IMG/VR virus record: IMGVR_UViG_3300045988_154040
Strand: one strand, 5' to 3'
Source of the DNA: a virus
DNA length: 64,000 nt
The notes below the pieces were generated by a model. That model saw only the letters and a list, made by a program, of their open reading frames with translations. It had not been told where the DNA came from and ran no database searches. Both the position numbers and the translations under genes were made by a program. This document shows positions 404-63,775 of this stretch, one piece after another; within the stretch, counting starts at the first letter, position 1; each line of letters opens with the position of its first letter.

Positions 404-991
404 TTACTTTATATCTAATTCTTTTCTCAACTTTTGTAATAAATCTTTTATAATTCTATTAACATTAGATTGAGTTTGATTAATTTCCTCTGCAATTTCT
501 CTTTGTTTGTATCCACTTATATGCATATAAAATATTTTTTTGTGATTGGGATTTTTGATATTTTCTACAAAATTTTCTATAACTGTTTTTATAACAGTTT
601 CATTTTCTATATCACAATTTTTATCTGGCAAGCAATCTAAAAAAATAATTTTTCCATCTTCGCTATTATTCTTTATATTTTGATTATAAGAAACAAGATA
701 CTTTTGCGTCTCTCTATGTTGTGCACTATTTTTTCTCCATTCATTTTTTATTTCATTCCACATAACAAAATAAGCATAACTAGAAAATTTATTACCTTTT
801 TCTTCTTGGAAAGTTTGTGCCGCTCTTACTAATCCAATAGCCGCAATATCATAATAATCTTCTATATTTAAATTATGTTGTCTTAAAAAAGAATATATAA
901 GATTATGATTTTGCGTAATAAAATAATCTAGTTCATTTTTATATATAGGGGGTACTTTCAACGTTTCATTTCCTTTCTGAGTTTTAGACAA
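404..991 (-). CDS. sigma-70 family RNA polymerase sigma factor (regions 2 and 4 only)
   Basis: Region 2-like YYDIAAIGLVRAAQTFQEEKGNKFSSYAYFVMWNEI. Region 4 HTH-like ISGYKQREIAEEINQTQSNVNRIIKDLLQKLRKEL. Confidence 0.85.
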   Translation of the reverse strand: MSKTQKGNETLKVPPIYKNELDYFITQNHNLIYSFLRQHNLNIEDYYDIAAIGLVRAAQTFQEEKGNKFSSYAYFVMWNEIKNEWRKNSAQHRETQKYLVSYNQNIKNNSEDGKIIFLDCLPDKNCDIENETVIKTVIENFVENIKNPNHKKIFYMHISGYKQREIAEEINQTQSNVNRIIKDLLQKLRKELDIK

Positions 992-7224: not shown

Positions 7225-7782
7225 TTATAATTTATCAGTAGAAGTGTAACCGTTTTCTCTGTCCCACACTTTTGTGTAGTGGTTGAACACGCCGATATAT
7301 GCCGCACAATTGGTAGTATAGATTGCATCAATATCAAAACTATCATCTTCATCTTCATTATCTCGACAAGTCAAATCACTTTTGTAGGTGTTTAAATCCA
7401 TCCATCCATAACTATTTAATCTTCCGTTTATTCCAATGCGCCGTAGCACATTAGTACTGGAAATTGGGGTATTTTTCATATCTGTATTAAGCATTACTAA
7501 ATACATACTTTCGCTTTTTGTCTCCACAATCATTCCTGACTTGAGGAAATCTTTGGGGGTGATATCTTCTTCTTTTTCTTTTGGAGGGGCTGTATCTGTG
7601 AACTGAATATGCTCTACTCTGGGGATTATCATTTTTCCGCTGGGGAGTTTTACCAAGGCAACAGGATATTGGCCCAATGAATCTTCATCATAATTGGTGC
7701 TAAAGCCGCAAAACTCGCCGTCTTTGAAAAGTACGTATCCTAATTTTTCATCCCAATATTTACCACAACATTTACCTTCCAT
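7225..7782 (-). CDS. hypothetical protein; C-terminal domain paralogous to 9200-9616
   Basis: Shared blocks: DFLKSGMIVE..YLV / NDLKTGMFVK..YFV, WMDLNTYKSDLT / WLSLANYNEDLT, YTKVWDRE / YVKIWDRD. Confidence 0.6.
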   Translation of the reverse strand: MEGKCCGKYWDEKLGYVLFKDGEFCGFSTNYDEDSLGQYPVALVKLPSGKMIIPRVEHIQFTDTAPPKEKEEDITPKDFLKSGMIVETKSESMYLVMLNTDMKNTPISSTNVLRRIGINGRLNSYGWMDLNTYKSDLTCRDNEDEDDSFDIDAIYTTNCAAYIGVFNHYTKVWDRENGYTSTDKL

Positions 7783-7793
7783 ATCTTTCCTCC

Positions 7794-8138
7794 TTAAAAT
7801 GAAAATGGGTCTTTATTTTCCAAGGATTCCACTTCTTCCCATGCATCTTCATTTTCTGGTGGGATTGATGGGATTTTCTTATTAGGGTTCTTTGATTTTT
7901 GGGGAGTTGGGACTTCATAGCGGTCAGCATAAATAACCAATTCATTGATTACTTCTTTTCTGCCATCTACAGTGAAACCAACTATATTTAGCAATTCTGC
8001 CGCCAATTCATCATGGCGCACAGGATAATCTGCAAATACCACTTTCAGATTTTTTCCTTTGATTGCATCATCATTAAGTATGTTTCTTAAAACATTTGTT
8101 GTTAAAAACACTTTCTTAGGTTGGGAATTTTTCATCAT
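7794..8138 (-). CDS. hypothetical protein; paralog of 9882-10205
   Basis: MMKNSQPKKVFLTTNVLRNILNDD...ENKDPFSF aligns end to end with MMKNPQPQPNKAFLTTDVLRSILNDD...ENKDPFKDPFLF. Confidence 0.65.
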   Translation of the reverse strand: MMKNSQPKKVFLTTNVLRNILNDDAIKGKNLKVVFADYPVRHDELAAELLNIVGFTVDGRKEVINELVIYADRYEVPTPQKSKNPNKKIPSIPPENEDAWEEVESLENKDPFSF

Positions 8139-10216: not shown

Positions 10217-10405
10217 TTAATGATTAGCAAAACATGCATTACGCTGAGCATTGTTAAGTTTAAAGTAAATACATTTAGGTTCACTTTTAAAATTCATAGC
10301 ATATGCTTTTGTAATAATAGAATTAATTTCTTTTGTAAATTTTTCAAAATCATCTCTATAAGCACAAACATTTCTATGAACACAATTTTCACAAGCGTCA
10401 CTCAT
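10217..10405 (-). CDS. small Cys-rich protein
   Basis: MSDACENCVHRNVCAYRDD...; 62 aa. Confidence 0.5.
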   Translation of the reverse strand: MSDACENCVHRNVCAYRDDFEKFTKEINSIITKAYAMNFKSEPKCIYFKLNNAQRNACFANH

Positions 10406-10419
10406 AACCGTTCCTCCTT

Positions 10420-10656
10420 TTAAGCTGTTGTATAACTGTTGTACAGCTTTATAGCATCTTTTAATTTAATGAATGGGGTTTCAACCACTTTTAAGGGGCC
10501 GTTCTCCACAAAAGATTCTTTAATGACCACATAAGAAATCTTGTCGAAATTGGGAATCTGAGGATTGATACAGCCAAACAACATTACCCTCATTTCACTA
10601 TCCTTGTACTCACTCATGATAAACCTCTTAAATAATTCTTCTCTTACTTTATTCAT
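10420..10656 (-). CDS. hypothetical protein
   Basis: 78-aa ORF in the operon. Confidence 0.5.
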   Translation of the reverse strand: MNKVREELFKRFIMSEYKDSEMRVMLFGCINPQIPNFDKISYVVIKESFVENGPLKVVETPFIKLKDAIKLYNSYTTA

Positions 10657-10670
10657 TTCTCATTCTCCTT

Positions 10671-10955
10671 TTATAATATTTTTATTATTTTTATGTTGTA
10701 ATGAGAATCTAAATAATCTTTAAGAATATTTAAATCATCATTTTCATTTTCTCCACTTATCCTAAATTCTATTGTATCTTTTAATAATTCAGTGTTGCAG
10801 TTAAATTCAGTAATGCCTAATAAACTTTTGGCGTTTACTTCTTTTCTTATAGTTTTATTAACCAATCTTACATCACTGTTTAAAGTACAGGTGCAAGAAA
10901 CAACAGATGGAAAATTATGGGGATAACTTTTAAAACAAAATGAAAATATTTTCAT
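10671..10955 (-). CDS. HPr/Crh-like phosphocarrier-fold protein (divergent)
   Basis: VNAKSLLG matches the HPr Ser46 loop VNLKSIMG. SGENENDDLNILKDYL matches SGADENDALNALEETM. His13 (YPHNFPS vs GIHARPA) lies exactly 31 residues before the Ser, as His15-Ser46 does in B. subtilis HPr. Arg17 is replaced by Phe. Confidence 0.6.
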   Translation of the reverse strand: MKIFSFCFKSYPHNFPSVVSCTCTLNSDVRLVNKTIRKEVNAKSLLGITEFNCNTELLKDTIEFRISGENENDDLNILKDYLDSHYNIKIIKIL

Positions 10956-10973: not shown

Positions 10974-11255
10974 TTACAAGAACAGCCAGGAGTACAGGGA
11001 GAAAAATGGATATAGGATAACCCTGACGATTGATAGGATACAAGTTAGTACAAACAAGAACAAGAGACTTAACACGTCAAAGGGTAACATCCACCAATTT
11101 GTATAAACATTTACCTTGTGCTTTGTTTTACTATGCCACCAGCATTTTAAATCGAATAACTGATAAATAAATAGCTGATTAAACCAATTTCCTTTCACCG
11201 CTAATTCTTTATTACAGATTTTACAAACTCCTTGTCTTTTCTTTATCATTTCCAT
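10974..11255 (-). CDS. membrane protein with N-terminal CxxC
   Basis: GVCKICNKE is followed by the hydrophobic C-terminal half WWMLPFDVLSLLFLFVLTCILSIVRVILYPFF. Confidence 0.5.
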   Translation of the reverse strand: MEMIKKRQGVCKICNKELAVKGNWFNQLFIYQLFDLKCWWHSKTKHKVNVYTNWWMLPFDVLSLLFLFVLTCILSIVRVILYPFFSLYSWLFL

Positions 11256-11482
11256 ATATTTTCTTTTTTCTCCTTTTCTTTATCTTCTTTATATCGTTTA
11301 TAGAATATTTCCATTTGTTTCTCAATTTCTGGGTCGTTTAATTCTTCTTCTGGCATTTGAGCACGACTTCCACCTACAGCACAAGGAGATATTTTATATA
11401 TTTCATGAAATAAATTGTAATCTGACATAACTGTACAATCTCCCATAGAATCTTCAAATCTACAACCAGAACCGTAGCACAT
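11246..11482 (-). CDS. small Cys-rich protein with a Lys/Glu-rich tail
   Basis: MCYGSGCRFEDSMGDC...; 78 aa. Confidence 0.5.
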   Translation of the reverse strand: MCYGSGCRFEDSMGDCTVMSDYNLFHEIYKISPCAVGGSRAQMPEEELNDPEIEKQMEIFYKRYKEDKEKEKKENIWK

Positions 11483-11561: not shown

Positions 11562-11590
11562 ACTATATCATATAAAATAATATATGTCAA
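11562..11590 (-). promoter_or_regulatory. sigma-A-type promoter TTGACA-17 bp-TATAGT (minus strand)
   Basis: Plus-strand tgtcaa at 11585-11590 and actata at 11562-11567. Confidence 0.55.
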
Positions 11591-11715: not shown

Positions 11716-12234
11716 TCAGTTTTGATTATCTGGTAATGGCATCCAGGCAATTGGGTTATAAGTATCCCATCCATCAAAAAATATTTTCTGTCCTGATGAT
11801 GTACTGATATAAAACGATACCGTCCTCATACCATCAGGCAATAAAATCAAGAGTTTTTCATCCTCCCGCATAGCCCCACTGGTTTTTGGTGTCCGCTCAT
11901 CTACCGGAATCCATCTATAGTTATCCATTGCCTCAAGCGCTTCTATTGCCATGATATTACGCTCTACAGTTCCATCTTCTTTTCCTGTCAAAAGCGCATT
12001 ATCTATCTCAAATCCTTCAATTGCATCTCTGACCGTCATAATCTTTCCTTCCTCCGGTTCTCCCGGAAATGCTAATTTCCTGTTTCTGAATAACTGTTCG
12101 CATTCTACTGGTGTTAATTTGCACTGACAACATTGGCAACTCTTACCTGTTGCCCCACACCTATAATCCTCGTCATACTCGTTCCCGCTACGAAATGGGA
12201 TAACTACAACATAAGGACAGTTATAAAAATCCAT
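11716..12234 (-). CDS. Cys-rich N-terminal domain fused to a DUF551-like C-terminal domain
   Basis: The C-terminus WIPVDERTPK...LLILLPDG...NPIAWMPLPD has the DUF551 pattern (W.pv...P....vl......v.hWmPlP), recalled from memory. Confidence 0.55.
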   Translation of the reverse strand: MDFYNCPYVVVIPFRSGNEYDEDYRCGATGKSCQCCQCKLTPVECEQLFRNRKLAFPGEPEEGKIMTVRDAIEGFEIDNALLTGKEDGTVERNIMAIEALEAMDNYRWIPVDERTPKTSGAMREDEKLLILLPDGMRTVSFYISTSSGQKIFFDGWDTYNPIAWMPLPDNQN

Positions 12235-12264: not shown

Positions 12265-12513
12265 TTACTTTCTTTTCCAATATTTACAAACTGATTTTCC
12301 AGTGATACTTTTTATTTGCTCTCTGAAATCTCCTCCAAAAGGCAAATCATAATCATCTTCTAATTCTGAAGAGTGTTTACATACAGGATAAACATATGAT
12401 GGTAGTTCACATCTTCCATATTCACCATATTGTCCATTAAAACAATCCCATTCTTTAAACAATTTACATGATTCACAATTTTTATTGCATTTCTTTTTCT
12501 GTCTACTATTCAT
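12265..12513 (-). CDS. small Cys-rich protein
   Basis: KKCNKNCESCKLFKEWDC...; 82 aa. Confidence 0.55.
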   Translation of the reverse strand: MNSRQKKKCNKNCESCKLFKEWDCFNGQYGEYGRCELPSYVYPVCKHSSELEDDYDLPFGGDFREQIKSITGKSVCKYWKRK

Positions 12514-12532: not shown

Positions 12533-12691
12533 TTAATTTACTGGTTCCCAATACCAGTCAACCCGTTGCATGACAATTTCTTTAATATCCTCTTCTATTT
12601 CTTCGTCTGTCGCCCCGTCCGGATATTCCAGCTCATCCTCTACATCAGTACCAGCATATCCATAATTAGCTTTATATTTTACTTTTCTCAT
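12533..12691 (-). CDS. small acidic protein (52 aa)
   Basis: Hand-translated MRKVKYKANYGYAGTDVEDELEYPDGATDEEIEEDIKEIVMQRVDWYWEPVN. It replaces the implausible plus-strand ORF 12485-12715. Confidence 0.45.
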   Translation of the reverse strand: MRKVKYKANYGYAGTDVEDELEYPDGATDEEIEEDIKEIVMQRVDWYWEPVN

Positions 12692-12711: not shown

Positions 12712-12876
12712 CTAATTTTCCTCATTATGCGATGTGCAGTATTCGCACCATTTGCAAGCCTCTATTGGCTCATCATCACCGGCACGACTAAATCCCATAC
12801 ATTTACCATTACTGTCCCGTCCCGGCTCCCCGCATCGCCTAATATACTTACAGTTGTCTGGTGTCCTCTTTGGCAT
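12712..12876 (-). CDS. small Cys-rich protein (54 aa)
   Basis: Hand-translated MPKRTPDNCKYIRRCGEPGRDSNGKCMGFSRAGDDEPIEACKWCEYCTSHNEEN with RBS GGAGGTG upstream. It replaces plus-strand ORF 12727-12933. Confidence 0.45.
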   Translation of the reverse strand: MPKRTPDNCKYIRRCGEPGRDSNGKCMGFSRAGDDEPIEACKWCEYCTSHNEEN

Positions 12877-12995: not shown

Positions 12996-13712
12996 TTATT
13001 TACTTTCAATTGTTATAAAATCACTTATTTCCTGTGCGTTTGGTAAATGTGCAAAAAAATTAGCTAAATCTCTTAATTCTTTTTGTTTATGATTACGTCT
13101 GGCAAAATAGTAAGCTCTGGCAGTTTGAGCAGAACAAGTATAAGTGGCAGTAAAATTAAAACTTTGAGGTAAATCTTGTATAATTTGTCTAAATATATTT
13201 TCTTTTTCTTCTGAATCAGCAGGTAAAGAATTATATTTTAGAATAAGATTGTTTAAATGTAAAATAGTTGCATCACGAAACGGATTATTAATTATTTTTC
13301 CATTTTTATCATCATAACTAAAATCATTTATAGTTAAAGGTCTACTTGTAATTTTGTGCATACGACTGGAAGAATTTTTTACAGTAGCTACTTTATAGGT
13401 ATCAATATCCCACCATGCCGTCATAGGAGCTGTAAGTAAAAAAGAAAGTTGTATTTGTCTAAACCATTTTCCATGGTCAGTTCCAGCTAATATTAAATTC
13501 TCTGCTAATTTTTTATCTTTAGGGCCTATGATGATTCTTAATATTTTATTATGACTATTAAAATCATTAAGCGGAATTGTAAATATTTCTCCATTATCAT
13601 AATTGTAAGTTAAACAATAAGAATCTGATAAAAGATTACTATTTTTAGGTAATCTCATACCATATAAAGCATTTGCTAATCCTGAAATTTCCATTTTTTC
13701 AATTTTTATCAT
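12996..13712 (-). CDS. ThyX-like (flavin-dependent thymidylate synthase fold) protein lacking the RHR signature
   Basis: FRQIQLSFLLTAPMTAWWDIDTYKVATVKNSSSRMH aligns without gaps to T. maritima ThyX [36 protein letters not shown] (recalled). The AP, S and R positions are kept, but RHR is replaced by TYK. Confidence 0.45.
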   Translation of the reverse strand: MIKIEKMEISGLANALYGMRLPKNSNLLSDSYCLTYNYDNGEIFTIPLNDFNSHNKILRIIIGPKDKKLAENLILAGTDHGKWFRQIQLSFLLTAPMTAWWDIDTYKVATVKNSSSRMHKITSRPLTINDFSYDDKNGKIINNPFRDATILHLNNLILKYNSLPADSEEKENIFRQIIQDLPQSFNFTATYTCSAQTARAYYFARRNHKQKELRDLANFFAHLPNAQEISDFITIESK

Positions 13713-15249: not shown

Positions 15250-15278
15250 ATAATAACAGAATATAATATAAATGTCAA
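15250..15278 (-). promoter_or_regulatory. sigma-A-type promoter TTGACA-17 bp-TATTAT (minus strand)
   Basis: Plus-strand tgtcaa at 15273-15278 and ataata at 15250-15255; lies upstream of the 15218 start. Confidence 0.5.
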
Positions 15279-16033: not shown

Positions 16034-19000
16034 ATGCAAAATAGTAGAAGAAAAATATTTAAGATTTCTACAGAGAGATTAGCTTCTAACAATTGGGATA
16101 TTAAGTTAGACCAAAAATTAGCTGTAAGGTTAGATGAATTAGTAGATTTATTTGATAATCAGTCTTTTAGGTTGTTGGATATTATTTCCAAAGCTTACAA
16201 ATCCAATCTTACAGATAAAGTGCTGGCAGTAGAAATATCTAAGAAAAAAGATTATGCCAGGGCTACTTCTCCAAAAGGCATTTATGTAAATGGTTTTAAT
16301 TTCCAATGGTTTGTAGGAACTACAGGAGGATTGAAAAATGAAACTATTTTATTTGTTCGTTCTGACCTTTTAGAAGAATTAGATAAAAGATGTGAATGCG
16401 GCAGAAAAAAAGATTATAAACTGGTTCCTGCAAAGTACGAAGCTTATAAATCTCTTACTTGTTCTGCATCTTTAGAAATTGTGGAACCTAGAGATGTACT
16501 TGTGGTTTCTGATTGTTTTGTTGATTTTTATGACAATGTAATCAATATAGATGATACAAACAATGACGAACCAGAAGTAACAATATTGGAAAATATTTTA
16601 CTTGAAAACAATGGTAGTGATGGTTTAAATTTATGTACACCAGAATATATGCAGAGAGTAGCAGAAAAACTTAATTTAGATTATATTCCTGCTGGTGGCT
16701 GTTTAAGAAATGCTTGGCTTAAGGGAATGTTGTATGTGTTTGATATTCTTGATTTTGCCGAGAAAATAGCTCAAACTTACGAAGTGAAAGATATTTGGGG
16801 ACATATTCATGATATTCGCAATGTGGATATGATTATTACAGAATCCAGTTTAAAGATTTGGGATAATTATGATAGTTGGGAAGATTATCATAGCAATTAT
16901 ATAAAAAATGGCTATCGTTTCGCCATGACTAAAGTTACACCTAAAGTTTTGGATGATGTAAGAGAAATAAATTATCAGTACTTACAATCTTACGAATTGA
17001 CAGATGAAGATATTAAAGAGTTGGCTAAACCTACTGTTGATTGGCTTAAGCAATCTTTGACTGGCGATTATGAACAAACTTTAAAATTTCTGGGAATAAG
17101 TGAAAAAACAAAGAGTAATGATTATGCACAAGCATTATATCTTAATCCAGAAATGATGAAAGACCCTTATGTAATTGACAGAATTAATAAAATGATAAAG
17201 AAAAAAATCAATAATGCTAAGATTGGTAAATTATTGGTTAATGGAAATTATCAGCTTGTAAGTGGCGACCCTTATGCTTTAATGCAACATGTTTTTGGGT
17301 TAGAAGTTACAGGTCTTTTAGAAGCAAAAGAAGTTTATTCCAAATATTGGAATGATAAAGAAGATGCAGAAGAATTAGTATGTTTTCGTAGTCCTATGAC
17401 AAGTCATAACAATATTCGTAAAATGAAAAGAATTAATAATGATACTGTGAATTATTGGTATCGTCATATGGATACTATATTTATTATTAACAACAAAGAT
17501 ACGTTTTGTATGGCTATGAACGGATGCGATTTTGATTAGTAATATAGTCCTTTGTTTTTTAACAAAGCAAGTGGTGAACCATCAGAGTATGGGTGTATAG
17601 ACTACTTTTTATTTATAAAAAAGGAATTGTAGGAAATGACAATTTGAGTCTGTGCTAACAGGGAAAGCCTAAACTTAATTGTAGATAAGCATGGTAATCC
17701 TGTGGGAAATAAAATAAAAATGTTTGCTTGTTGTAAAACAGAAAACAAACAAAAATATTTTTATTGGAAACCTTAAACGACTATCCCTTGGTCTGGTCGC
17801 AATATAAATACAGACAATAGGAGTAGGGCCATAGCGATATGGTGAGTGAAAACCTCTTAAATCGAAGTGCCACTGAACAAATATTGCAATTTAATATTTG
17901 TGAAAGATATAGTCTATTCCCTCCAAGCAATATTGGAGTTAAAGTACTGGGAAACCAGGGGTATTAAAGGGAGATGCAATTTATTCTACAAATAATTCAG
18001 TATTGTTAAGAAAATATAAGGAACTATTGGCTATTCAGTGTGTACAAAGAAAAGCAGAAAAACAAATTGTTACTAGGTCTATGATAAAAAAGAGCAATTA
18101 CAAAGGATTGGGAAATGGGGTTGGTAAAATTACCAACGATGTATCCAGTATGATTGATATTCTCTTTGGGTTACAAAAGGGTACAATTGAGTACGAGACA
18201 CTTTACAAACGTATTCTATGTGGTCAGCTATTTCAGCAAAATGAATTGGATTAACCTAAAAAATTGAGTCCAATTAAAAATCGGTGAACCTAGAAATCTA
18301 GGGTGTTTATTCTACGTGCAGGAGCGGAATTGTAGTAAATGACAATTTGAGAATAAGCTAACAGGGAAAATCTTAATAATAAAAATATTAATATAAAATA
18401 ATAAAAAAAGAGGTGAAAAATAAATGAAAAGAAAAGATTTAACAAATAATATTTATGGATGTTTAAAAGTATTATCTATAAATGAAGAAGAAACAAAACA
18501 GCAATTTAAAAAAATTATTATTAAGACAATCCTGTGCCAAGCTTAAAGAGAAATCTTTTTGAAGGTTAAACGACTAAGACATACGACCTAAGTTTTATAA
18601 AAAATATGGTTATGAAGTCTGTAGCTTTAAGGTGAAATTCCTTATTGCGAAGCGCCGATTGCCATTAGAATATTAATGGTAATGATATAGTCTATTCTCT
18701 ATGGTGACATAGAGTAGTAAAGAAATTAAAGGGTATTATTGCTAAAGATATGCCAAAGAATTGGTATATGAGGAATCATTGTAAAACAGAAATTGATAAA
18801 AAAATAGTTGCTGATAAAAAACCATATTATTTCATGTATAATTATCCTACTATAAAAAAAGATTATGATAATTATATTAAACATAGTAATAATAAATGTT
18901 TGATGTTATATGGATGTACCGTAGAAGAATTAGAAGCAAAATATTTGGAGAATCCAGAAATTTTTTCTGAGAACTGTAAAGAGTTTTTATATTGGTATCA

Positions 19001-60626: not shown

Positions 60627-63600
60627 TTAATTTTCATTATCTCCCAAATGAACAAATCTATCTCTAATTTCTTCTGTTCTTCCATAATTCCAATAATGAG
60701 TTCCTATATACATTTCTACCCTCGATTTCTCGATATTTATTAGGGGATTGGACTATTCCTTATGTTCTCTCCATTTAAATAGATTGGTTGAGCAACACCG
60801 ATAATTATAGTCTCTGCACCTTTTTATTGACATATTCCTTTATTTGTTCTTTTCTTGATTTTAAAATTTGTGGTTCTTCTTTAGGGTATCTATATTCTTT
60901 AAAAAGAATTTTTTCTGCATACCATCTAGCCCAATAAGCTTCTTCTTCATAAATGTAAGTTCCTAAATTAAGCATTTTTTGATTTATTTTAATATGGGCA
61001 TAATATTTATTATCTTTAGTTAGACTAACACCTTTATAATTAACATTCATTTGATTTTGTGATTTAGTAACTATTCTTAAATTTGATTTTCTATTGTCTA
61101 ATTTATTATGATTTATATGGTCTATAAAAACATCTTTTTCTTCAATTTCCATAATTACATGTGTCATATGTTTGTTGGAACCTTTATACTTAGGAGTATT
61201 CATAGCATAACCAGAACTAGATAATTTCCATTTTATATTTTTTACTTTAGATAAATCTTCTGTATCAATTATTACTTTTGCAATAACTTCGTAATTTTTA
61301 TCATAAAGATTTATAGTAGTAATTTCTCCATTTATAAAATATTCGTTTTTATCAAGTAATGTTCTAGGATTATTGTCTAAAAATTTTCCATACTTTTTTT
61401 GCTGTTTGTAATGTTTAGGACATAAAGTATATCCATAACTTTTAATTTTACGAGTTAAAGGTCTTTTACAAATATCACAATAAAACATTAATTTTTCCTC
61501 CTTTCTTTATTATTTTTATAGGAATATGTCAATAAACTTGGCTCAAGATTATCCGTTTAATTTATATCATAATAAATTAAGTGTGGACTTCCCTTGAATT
61601 TCTATCGTTTTGAGATGTGGCAATAATTTAGAACAATCTTGGTCTACCACATGTTCTTCTAGCGATATTCATTGTATCCTGATTAGTATTTCCGCAATTA
61701 GGGCAATACCAAGTCATATTGTTTGAATTGATTTTCATTTCTCCGTCATAACCGCATTCATGACAATAATCACTTTTTGTATTTAATTCTGCATACATGA
61801 TATTATCATAAATGAAACGCATAACTGTTAAAACAGCATCTATATTTCCGGTTAAATCAGCCGTTTCAATATAACTTATTGCCCCACCAGGAGAAAGTTT
61901 CTGAAACTTGGATTCAATAGCTAATTTAGTAAATGGGTCAATATGCTCAAATACAGGAACATGATAGCTGTTAGTAACATAATCTCGGTCTTTTCCATCA
62001 AGTTTTATAAATACATCTTCACCAAATCTTTTCTTAAGACTTTTAGCGAATTTATAAGTTCCACTTTCTAATGGAGTACCATATACAGAATAATCTATAT
62101 CTTCTGCCGCTTTCCACTGAGCACATTTATCATTAAGTTTCTGCATAACTTCCAGGCCAAATTTCTCACCTTCTGCTCCATCAGTGTGTGAATGCCCTGT
62201 CATATATTTTACACATTCGTATAAAGCCCCGTAACCTAATGATACCGTACAGTAACCATGATGAAGTAAGTCGTATAATCCTTCTTCTTTATTCAAACGT
62301 GCCAATGCGCCGTTCTGCCATAAGATAGGGGCCACATCAGAAGTAACCTGTTCCAATCTTTTTAATCTGGCCTTTAATCCTAAATGACAAAGCTCTGTTC
62401 TTTCTTCAAATAATTCCCAGAATTTGTTAAAATCTCCACCAGATGATAATGCAAGGTCAGCTAAATTAATAGTTGTAACCCCGGCATTAAATCTTCCATA
62501 ATACTTATTTCCCTTTTCCCAATTATTGCATTTACTATAATTTTCTGTTGTTCTATCAGGTGTAAGGAAAGACCTGCATCCCATACATGCATATACTGCA
62601 TTTTTATATTCTCTCATTTTCTTTGCTGAAATATAATCTGGAACCATACGTTTAGCCGTACATTTAGCCGCCAATACAGTTAAATTCCAATAAGGAGAAT
62701 TTTCTTCTATATTGTTTTCATCCAATACATAAATCAGTTTAGGAAAAGCAGGAGTAATATAAACTCCCTTTTCATTTTTCATTCCTTTTATTCTCTGTTT
62801 TAAAAATTCTTCGATAAGTAAAGCTGTTTCCTTTTCATATTCTTTATCTTCATTAATATACATATAAACTGTAAGGAAAGGAGCCTGACCATTAGTGGTA
62901 CTCATACTATTTATCTGATAATTGAAAGTCTGTACACTATCTTTGATTTCTTTCTTTAAATCTTCTTCGGCCCATTTAATTGTATCTTCTTCATTAAAAC
63001 CTCTTTTTTTATATTTGTCGTAATAAATTTCATAGCTTTTTCTGACAAAAGGAGCTAAATGGGTTAAAGTAATAGTGATTCCTCCATATTGGCTAGAAGA
63101 AACAGCAGTAATTATCTGAGTTGCTACTGTCACGGCTGTGCTTAATCGTTTCTGTGCATCAATAGCTACTCCATTAATAACTGTACCAAAGTTTAACATA
63201 TCTTCAAGATTACATAAACAACAGTTATGAAGTGCTTTCTGGGCCATATAATCCATATCATGTTGATGAATTATACCTTCGTCATGAGCCTTACATACTT
63301 CTGGGGGCAATAAAAATCTTCTAGCAATATCTGTAGAAGTAATACCAGCTAAATAATCACGCTGAACTGTTACTACTTTGCTATCTTTATTTGAATTTTC
63401 AGAAGTCCAGTATTCACTTTTATTACCTAATAATTCCATAACATCTTTATCTGTAATACTTCCCCTGGCAAGAGTACGATTGTTACGATAAACAATATAG
63501 GCTTTTGCTACATCTTTGTACTTAGATTTCATTAATGTGCGCTCTACTACATCTTGTATTTCTTCTACCGTATATATTTTTTTCTTTTTTAAGTTTTCTT

Positions 63601-63775
63601 CCACATAAAAAACTATGTGGTTTATATCTTTTTCGTACTGAATGCGATTTTCTATAAAATCTTTACGTGTTTCTTTAAAAGCTTTAACAATAGCTACAAT
63701 TATGCGGTTTACATCATAATTTACCTTCCTTCCATCTCTTTTAATAACCTGCTTTTCTACTTCTTTTACTTTCAT
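60627..63775 (-). CDS. nrdD: anaerobic (class III) ribonucleotide reductase in two exons: join(complement 61646..63775, 60627..60710)
   Basis: N-terminal ATP-cone (VIKRDGRKVNYDVNRI). Exon 1 ends ...NIARRTCG and exon 2 reads YIGTHYWNYGRTEEIRDRFVHLGDNEN. Together they restore the glycyl-radical motif RRTCGYIG. Confidence 0.9.
60711..61645 (-). mobile_element. group I intron carrying an HNH-AP2 homing endonuclease gene in nrdD
   Basis: P1 is ATGTGGT (exon, plus-strand coordinates 61646-61652) with GCCACAT (61615-61621), with U.G at the splice site. On the minus strand, R is CAGAGACTAT (60807-60816) and S is AATAGTCC (60750-60757). The terminal G is the complement of C60711. Confidence 0.8.
60805..61488 (-). 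CDS. HNH homing endonuclease with AP2 DNA-binding domain
   Basis: IDHINHNKLDNRKSNLRIVTKSQNQMN (HNH) and KGVSLTKDNKYYAHIKINQKMLNLGTYIYEEEAYWARWYAE (AP2-like). Confidence 0.88.
   Translation of the reverse strand: MFYCDICKRPLTRKIKSYGYTLCPKHYKQQKKYGKFLDNNPRTLLDKNEYFINGEITTINLYDKNYEVIAKVIIDTEDLSKVKNIKWKLSSSGYAMNTPKYKGSNKHMTHVIMEIEEKDVFIDHINHNKLDNRKSNLRIVTKSQNQMNVNYKGVSLTKDNKYYAHIKINQKMLNLGTYIYEEEAYWARWYAEKILFKEYRYPKEEPQILKSRKEQIKEYVNKKVQRL

Follow-up and report, generated by a model that had tools for sequence, protein, structure and literature searches.

A diverged HPr-fold protein of Enterocloster phages that keeps the Ser46-type loop and has lost the phosphotransfer motif

The 64,000-nucleotide stretch of IMG/VR virus record IMGVR_UViG_3300045988_154040 analysed here (the window) carries on its minus strand, at 10671..10955 with the stop codon included, a gene for a 94-residue protein, MKIFSFCFKSYPHNFPSVVSCTCTLNSDVRLVNKTIRKEVNAKSLLGITEFNCNTELLKDTIEFRISGENENDDLNILKDYLDSHYNIKIIKIL. 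The open reading frame (ORF) begins with ATG and had been noted in a preliminary description of this DNA, which our analysis confirmed. The product is a true, very diverged homologue of HPr, which together with HPrK/P and CcpA forms the central carbon-sensing switch of Gram-positive bacteria. Between positions 8000 and 14000 the window is 95% identical to the Enterocloster phage CB473P3 and to CB457P1, CB457P2, CB473P1, CB473P2 and PMBT24; judged by sequence it comes from a virulent phage of about 100 kb of the PMBT24/CB473P3 group, siphophages whose host is the gut anaerobe Enterocloster bolteae (Lachnospiraceae). The HPr-like protein is encoded in all six of these relatives at 92–97% identity, and its gene is a core gene of the group. 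The paper describing PMBT24 mentions neither HPr nor the phosphotransferase system (PTS) (PMC11035940). GenBank labels the protein "hypothetical protein" in all six relatives and UniProt lists it as uncharacterised; the IMG automatic pipeline alone names the similarity, as "phosphotransferase system HPr-like phosphotransfer protein".

Several lines of comparison place the protein in the PTS-HPr superfamily. Residues 19–82 match Pfam PF00381 (PTS-HPr) with E = 2.2e-5, a score of 24.9 bits that clears the gathering score of 23 by a narrow margin, and each of the ten members of the family alignment matches this model individually. HMMER, run exhaustively over 1.84 billion representatives, returned three true relatives only, P0007, P0008 and P0010, with 62%, 41% and 33% identity (family members carry P-numbers here, contigs and loci L-numbers), and P0012 was added by profile search; two further HMMER matches, P0009 and P0011, were rejected as apparent repetitive proteins matched on composition. 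The family profile aligns over its full length with the HPr of Thermoanaerobacter tengcongensis in the PDB (3LE1; E = 1.8e-6), the remaining PDB matches being HPr or Crh apart from one weak match to a DARPin (E 0.16), and hhalign against a profile of 26 HPr sequences gives 96% probability and E = 4.5e-9. The pairings with B. subtilis HPr quoted in the preliminary description, VNAKSLLG with VNLKSIMG and SGENENDDLNILKDYL with SGADENDALNALEETM, were reproduced by phmmer and also by MAFFT.

Structure prediction leads to the same fold. An AlphaFold model built from ten family sequences with no HPr in the alignment has a predicted local distance difference test score (pLDDT) of 70 and a predicted template modelling score (pTM) of 0.66, and a Foldseek search of the PDB with it returns HPr or Crh for all of the top 35 matches. 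With HPr sequences added to the alignment these values rise to 92.4 and 0.84, and the resulting model superposes on 2HPR with template modelling (TM) scores of 0.75/0.80 and a root-mean-square deviation of 2.0 Å. Foldseek with this second model finds HPr, Crh or NPr exclusively down to rank 39, at TM scores of up to 0.80, and among the best matches are chains of HPr taken from its complexes with HprK/P and with CcpA. The predicted topology (strand β1, residues 2–8; helix A, 15–22; β2, 28–33; β3, 38–41; helix B, 45–52; β4, 62–67; helix C, 71–85) is the open-faced β-sandwich of HPr, in the order β-α-β-β-α-β-α with a four-stranded sheet and three helices, followed by an extra C-terminal strand at residues 88–93 (NIKIIK; 10677..10694, minus strand) that is absent from HPr and is predicted in both models. 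The mean pLDDT of the 10-residue block that begins at residue 81 is 95. The extra strand is specific to the clade: it is shorter in P0004 and P0006 and missing in P0010 and P0012. In sum, Pfam, the PDB profile, hhalign and AlphaFold with Foldseek all agree on the HPr fold, and the proposal that the phage encodes an HPr/Crh-like protein is borne out at the level of profile and structure. It lacks the N-terminal features that define HPr and Crh, and we assign it to nothing narrower than the PTS-HPr fold superfamily. The curated HPr family model TIGR01003 scores 14.2 bits against a cutoff of 47.9, and the equivalog models score 15–17 bits against 110–140. PHROGs holds no family for the protein or its three relatives, and B. 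subtilis HPr is likewise without a PHROG.

In the Bacillota the Ser46 loop of HPr is the substrate site of HPrK/P. The corresponding segment of the phage protein, V40-N-A-K-S44-L-L-G-I48 (10812..10838, minus strand; Ser44 codon 10824–10826), spans the loop and the start of helix B. Across a family whose members share 28–61% identity with the window protein, the invariant residues are V19, C23, N33, N41, K43, S44, L45, G47, F51, D60, G68 and E71, and the sole contiguous conserved block is V/I-N-A/G-K-S-L-x-G, equivalent to N43-x-K45-S46-I47-x-G49 of HPr. The regulatory serine position, which the preliminary description held to be retained, is thus kept together with its neighbours N41, K43, L45 and G47. 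Selection has kept both the fold and this loop with the beginning of helix B. The window's VNAKSLLGI is identical over nine residues to the loop of an Oscillospiraceae HPr; in a genome scan that used this string as a pointer to the host, the matching HPr was from Oscillospiraceae and not from Enterocloster. CcpA contacts Ser46-P through Arg304 and Lys308 and also touches Ile47, Met48 and Met51 of HPr (PMC10287919); L45 and L46 are the equivalents of Ile47 and Met48 in the phage protein.

The region that should hold the phosphotransfer site is very different. At P12-H13-N-F-P-S17 (10905..10922, minus strand; His13 codon 10917–10919) lies a decayed vestige of the active-site loop that reads G-I/L-H15-A-R17-P in HPr, and the wider motif reads S-Y-P-H-N-F-P-S where HPr has G-[IL]-H-[AT]-R-P. 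Between K9 and R30, over residues 10–29, there is no arginine or lysine, and the equivalent of Arg17 is therefore missing, in agreement with the earlier reading of the context as PHNFPS. The significant local alignments begin only at residues 17–21 (Pfam 19–82, hhalign 21–86, NCBIfam at residue 19 or later) and so exclude the histidine region, and hmmalign to the HPr hidden Markov model (HMM) could not place the N-terminus of the window protein. The residue facing His15 is H13 in phmmer and MAFFT alignments and F15 in those of other aligners, including the PDB profile. Helix A starts at residue 15 in the AlphaFold model, which would make N14 the N-cap residue, the role of His15 in HPr. The helix A of HPr has 12 residues and that of the model 8, about one turn fewer. 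The preliminary description also placed a histidine exactly where His15 stands relative to Ser46; His13 and Ser44 are indeed 31 residues apart, but compensating indels add up to this distance (about four residues lost around helix A, two gained in the β2–β3 hairpin), which residue is equivalent to His15 varies with the alignment, and the histidine is not conserved: P0008 has Asn at this position and P0010 and P0012 have Thr, with His kept in the window clade and P0007. In the functional sense, then, the claim that the His position is kept was not supported, His being missing from these three relatives and from all 22 of the other phage proteins described below. No Enzyme I was found in the 64-kb window by tblastn with the E. 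faecalis enzyme, no second HPr is encoded in it, and the large window ORFs tested contain no phosphoenolpyruvate-utilising domains. Arg17 and Lys45 of HPr form salt bridges with Enzyme I (PMC3724859). Because Arg17 is gone, helix A is shorter, the nearby histidine is unconserved and the N-terminus lies outside every significant alignment, the sequence argues that the 94-residue protein is not a PTS phosphocarrier and that its phosphotransfer site has decayed.

The gene itself is real and under purifying selection. Its protein cluster holds 184 member sequences, with the representative on 97 contigs, and further copies occur in IMG/VR and in human-gut metagenomes; a metagenome scan returned near-identical copies only, and a scan of the genomes of 185,579 species with family patterns revealed no bacterial or prophage relative. 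Among the more diverged pairs of copies the ratio of nonsynonymous to synonymous polymorphism (pN/pS) is 0.07–0.23. The GC content of the gene is 23% (16% at third codon positions) against 31% for the phage, which points to a long-resident gene and not to a recent capture from the host. The whole protein contains one alanine and two glycines, A42, G47 and G68, all at positions conserved in HPr; the Ser46-type loop, in a gene of such low GC, holds the sole alanine and one of the two glycines. Relatives P0012 and P0008 also sit in phage-like modules of small genes, with shared 304-residue and ThyX-like genes and with Acb2/Tad1-hairpin and HNH genes nearby.

The surroundings of the HPr-like gene are a dense series of small minus-strand genes. 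It begins 18 nucleotides after the stop codon of the upstream gene and ends 14 nucleotides before the next start, and the Shine-Dalgarno sequence of that next gene sits directly after its stop. Directly downstream lies a 78-residue gene (10420..10656, minus strand) whose product shares 36% identity with an 82-residue protein of L006 and L007, encoded there immediately behind an HPr-like gene whose own product is just 30% identical to that of the window; the counterpart in L006 is at 7314–7562. Directly upstream is a 93-residue gene (10974..11255, minus strand) whose product has an N-terminal CxxC and a hydrophobic C-terminus and is 42% identical to that of L006 6187–6477, likewise upstream of the HPr-like gene. 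On this evidence of synteny in distant relatives the two neighbours may be functional partners of the HPr-like protein. The 93-residue gene overlaps by 10 nucleotides (11246–11255) the end of a 78-residue, cysteine-rich gene at 11246..11482 (minus strand), the first of an apparent three-gene unit. Neither direct neighbour has a Pfam or NCBIfam match or one in PADLOC, the product of 11246–11482 matched no family in the Pfam and NCBIfam scan, nearly all of the more than 20 neighbouring ORFs so scanned lack a known family, and PADLOC run on the HPr-like protein and five neighbours gave nothing of use.

Promoters were sought as consensus pattern matches only. A candidate of the sigma-70 type lies upstream of the three-gene unit at 11562..11590 (minus strand), with TTGACA, a 17-nucleotide spacer, TATAGT and an extended −10 TG (11 of 12 consensus positions), and a second match at 15278–15250 stands at the head of the leftward module of small genes. 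From these matches and from the place of the gene in the module, early expression of the HPr-like protein is plausible. The far end of the same module carries a phage gene of the sigma-70 family (404–991, minus strand; Sigma70_r2 at E = 4e-13, plus region 4), whose product is a candidate for the switch from host-driven early to later transcription. Five small proteins around the HPr-like gene are rich in cysteine, each with several CxxC pairs (10217–10405, 11246–11482, 11716–12234, 12265–12513 and 12712–12876, all on the minus strand); Pfam matched none of the five, which may be zinc-binding early proteins.

Other phages also carry HPr-like genes. Scans of IMG/VR with patterns for canonical HPr and then with [VI]NAKSILG found 30 distinct loci on large viral contigs, mostly from the human gut and up to 204 kb long. 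These include 22 further distinct phage HPr-like proteins of 77–108 residues (L022–L060), all of which contain (V/I)NAKSILG; examples are at L031 1501–1746, L033 1501–1689, L041 1501–1689 and L051 1501–1569. In an alignment to the HPr HMM none of the 22 has His15, the position being N, T, A, S or unalignable, and 15 keep Arg17. The absence of His15 is informative, since cellular HPr with the same loop almost always has it. Two of the contig contexts were checked and both are phage-like, one with DNA ligase and deoxynucleoside monophosphate kinase and the other with RusA, PhoH and a virion protein. Three virome entries in BFVD also have an HPr-like fold and bear automatic names (A0A8S5S213, A0A8S5S9E0 and A0A8S5PSI8). 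The 22 IMG/VR proteins may form an unrecognised class of Crh-like proteins that lack His15 and keep the loop, and our literature search found no study of those outside the window family. A single monophyletic clade of phage HPr was considered and rejected, the family profile scoring 9–21 bits on the phage proteins against 13–29 bits on cellular HPr, and the picture is rather one of HPr pared down repeatedly.

Two of the other contigs stand apart. At L021 5001–5282, on a 72-kb viral contig, the arrangement is the mirror image: GLHARPAA is kept and Ser46 is replaced by Val (VSAKVVM). On L024 (5240–10204), a gut-phage contig of about 146 kb, almost no ORF of at least 70 residues occurs in the standard code over the 5 kb downstream of the HPr-like gene, a stretch that may reflect stop-codon reassignment, which has been reported for some gut phages (PMC10607447). 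Canonical HPr was also looked for in isolated phages by tblastn of INPHARED. The four records inspected, all marked "UNVERIFIED" (L061–L064, being MT835546, MT835502, MT835859 and OR846597), carry ordinary bacterial ptsH, in one case an E. faecalis ptsH followed by ptsI and in another a gene with GlmM-like and cell-wall sugar genes on its flanks; we rejected all four, which in all likelihood are stretches of host DNA and not genes of a phage.

Comparison with Crh of Bacillus subtilis helps to frame what such a protein might do. Crh is an HPr paralogue with Ser46 only and a purely regulatory role exerted through it, and both its phosphorylation on serine and its binding to CcpA have been demonstrated. 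The two proteins share the small HPr fold, the VNAKS(I/L)xG loop and, as it appears, the lack of a phosphorylatable active-site histidine; Crh is second best among reference sequences against the family profile (22 bits) and is also matched in the PDB search. The differences are considerable. Identity is only about 25–27%, and Arg17, Pro18 and a helix A of full length are all present in Crh (GLQARPAALFVQ), against PHNFPSVV and some eight helix A residues in the phage protein. The Crh-type combination of Arg17 and a full helix A with His15 replaced (GLQARPAA) is absent from the window protein and present in several of the other phage proteins. Crh is moreover a chromosomal gene product of Bacillales, whereas the phage protein, with its extra C-terminal strand, is encoded by a virulent phage of a Lachnospiraceae host. 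The likeness is most likely that of a functional analogue, a mimic with the Ser46 site alone. With HPr itself the phage protein shares the fold, the Ser46 loop and the equivalents of Gly67 and Glu70 (G68 and E71); it differs in lacking the G-[IL]-H-A-R-P site and an adjoining ptsI, in falling below the TIGR01003 cutoff and in its indels in helix A, the β2–β3 hairpin and the loop after helix B. The other phage proteins without His15 resemble it in being small, in being encoded on large gut-phage contigs and in their intact Ser46 loop, and differ in that most keep Arg17 (for example D-I-[NTAS]-x-R) and have KSILG in place of KSLLG.

A regulatory, Crh-like role is the best reading of these data because the fold is that of HPr, the Ser46 loop is the most conserved element and the PTS site is degenerate and without Arg17. 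In reports of 2002 and 2004, contacts made by Arg17 are said to drive the allosteric switch of CcpA, and since this residue is missing we favour, tentatively and at rather less than an even chance, an antagonist or decoy that acts on HPrK/P with or without CcpA. Made from the leftward module, presumably early, the mimic would compete with host HPr for HPrK/P, to which it would bind as a substrate or pseudo-substrate. Once phosphorylated it might also fill the HPr site of CcpA, and lacking Arg17 it would not be expected to throw the CcpA switch productively. The net effect would be lowered P-Ser46-HPr/CcpA signalling, with catabolite repression and inducer exclusion relieved and host HPr left available for phosphoenolpyruvate-dependent sugar uptake during phage replication, so that catabolite control would be uncoupled from sugar supply. 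In this scheme we infer which proteins are bound, that phosphorylation occurs and what follows for host physiology. Several observations weigh against it. The shortened helix A is rich in Ser, Cys and Thr, and in HPr this helix belongs to the interfaces with both HPrK/P and CcpA, so that docking has possibly been lost. T49, the equivalent of Met51, varies within the family. The serine loop could be conserved for structural reasons or for another partner that uses the same surface, and its conservation among the 22 other phage proteins is uninformative, the search pattern having demanded it. HPr sequences contributed to the alignment behind the high-confidence AlphaFold model, and the model from family sequences alone is poor precisely in helices A and B. 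HPrK/P, CcpA and HPr of E. bolteae are themselves extrapolated from other Clostridia (PMC3507653, PMC4634974).

An agonist, phosphorylated on Ser44 by HPrK/P and activating CcpA as P-Ser-HPr and P-Ser-Crh do, would lock the host in a glucose-replete programme, with glycolysis and overflow metabolism on and alternative catabolism off regardless of the real sugar supply. The serine loop and the conservatively kept L45 and L46 fit such a co-repressor, CcpA binding being centred on Ser46-P, Ile47, Met48 and Met51 (PMC10287919), and the many other phage proteins that keep Arg17 with the loop resemble complete Crh analogues; yet the window family lacks the arginine that reportedly drives the switch, has a variable Thr in place of Met51 and has a shortened helix A, and we consider both this activity and its outcome unlikely here. 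The HPr fold may alternatively serve to bind a different partner with no need for phosphorylation of the serine, a reading that we hold to be somewhat improbable. HPr is a promiscuous hub, and complexes of HPr with Rsd, with glycogen phosphorylase and with FruR are among the Foldseek matches; candidates are GapA or methylglyoxal synthase, both clients of Crh in Bacillus, regulators with PTS regulation domains, glycogen phosphorylase and an Rsd-type anti-sigma factor, and a phage protein such as the syntenic 78-residue product or a component of host defence are further possibilities. The homologous 78/82-residue gene stays adjacent even where the HPr-like proteins share 30% identity, an Acb2/Tad1-hairpin gene of the kind typical of counter-defence clusters lies in the L006 neighbourhood, and the invariant C23, N33, F51 and D60 outside the loop have no known role in HPr. 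Set against these points, the most conserved block coincides with the recognition loop for HPrK/P and CcpA, no PADLOC or PHROG family ties the protein to defence, and the Crh–MgsA and HPr–Rsd interactions are known from other taxa.

A further reading makes the protein a functional phosphocarrier of the PTS, encoded as an auxiliary metabolic gene, whose His13 would accept phosphate from host Enzyme I and pass it to Enzyme IIA, boosting sugar uptake. A histidine does lie near the expected place, is kept in the window clade and P0007, and is set opposite His15 by two aligners. The missing Arg17 and the want of any basic residue at 10–29, a histidine unconserved in P0008, P0010 and P0012, an active-site region that profiles fail to align, the TIGR01003 score far under its cutoff, a helix A one turn shorter with N14 rather than H13 as its predicted N-cap, the lack of ptsI in the window and the absence of His15 from every other phage protein found with the serine loop together make this very improbable. 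The same loss of the catalytic motif, with the very low similarity to HPr, might instead mark a functionless, decaying remnant of a captured ptsH. This is scarcely credible given an intact frame in all six phages and in scores of metagenomic contigs, pN/pS well under 1 for the more diverged pairs, length, fold and loop kept in homologues down to 28% identity, and alanine and glycine retained solely at HPr-conserved positions despite extreme AT bias.

The preferred reading, a decoy with the Ser46 site alone, can be set in a wider frame, which we hold as a possible but somewhat doubtful generalization: gut phages of Bacillota may repeatedly have acquired HPr and pared it into Ser46-only effectors that seize the HPrK/P–CcpA switch, an unrecognised class of which the Enterocloster protein would be the most stripped-down member. 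Our literature search found no paper on a phage HPr-like protein or on a viral protein that targets the HPr–HPrK/P–CcpA switch. Were the proposal correct, phages would be reprogramming which sugars abundant Clostridia of the gut prefer and take up while infected. Host take-over of this kind would be new and would affect carbohydrate metabolism in the gut, and HPrK/P and CcpA would gain minimal ligands or inhibitors of natural origin. The question is tractable, since PMBT24, the CB457 and CB473 phages and the E. bolteae strains that they infect are all cultured.

Some further features of the window and its relatives were recorded. The product of 12996–13712 (minus strand), 238 residues long, has a homologue at L009 2272–2970 that weakly matches Pfam Thy1 (ThyX), a match that the window copy does not show; in L006 (2157–3437) the homologous region sits within a 426-residue ORF with NUMOD4 and HNH_3 domains, which suggests a homing-endonuclease fusion or insertion. 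A 52-residue DUF7167 protein is encoded at 12533–12691 (minus strand). Beside the module in PMBT24 lies the gene for an 832-residue protein (L001 1–809; 9612–12107 of the PMBT24 record) that GenBank names "RNA-dependent RNA polymerase", an implausible label for a siphophage with double-stranded DNA and probably a mis-annotation; the window ORF at 16034–17539, its counterpart by position only, has no Pfam match. The window gene at 61628–63775 (minus strand) specifies NrdD (E = 2e-162), the ribonucleotide reductase of anaerobic metabolism, complete with its ATP-cone and glycyl-radical domains, which fits a phage of a strict anaerobe.

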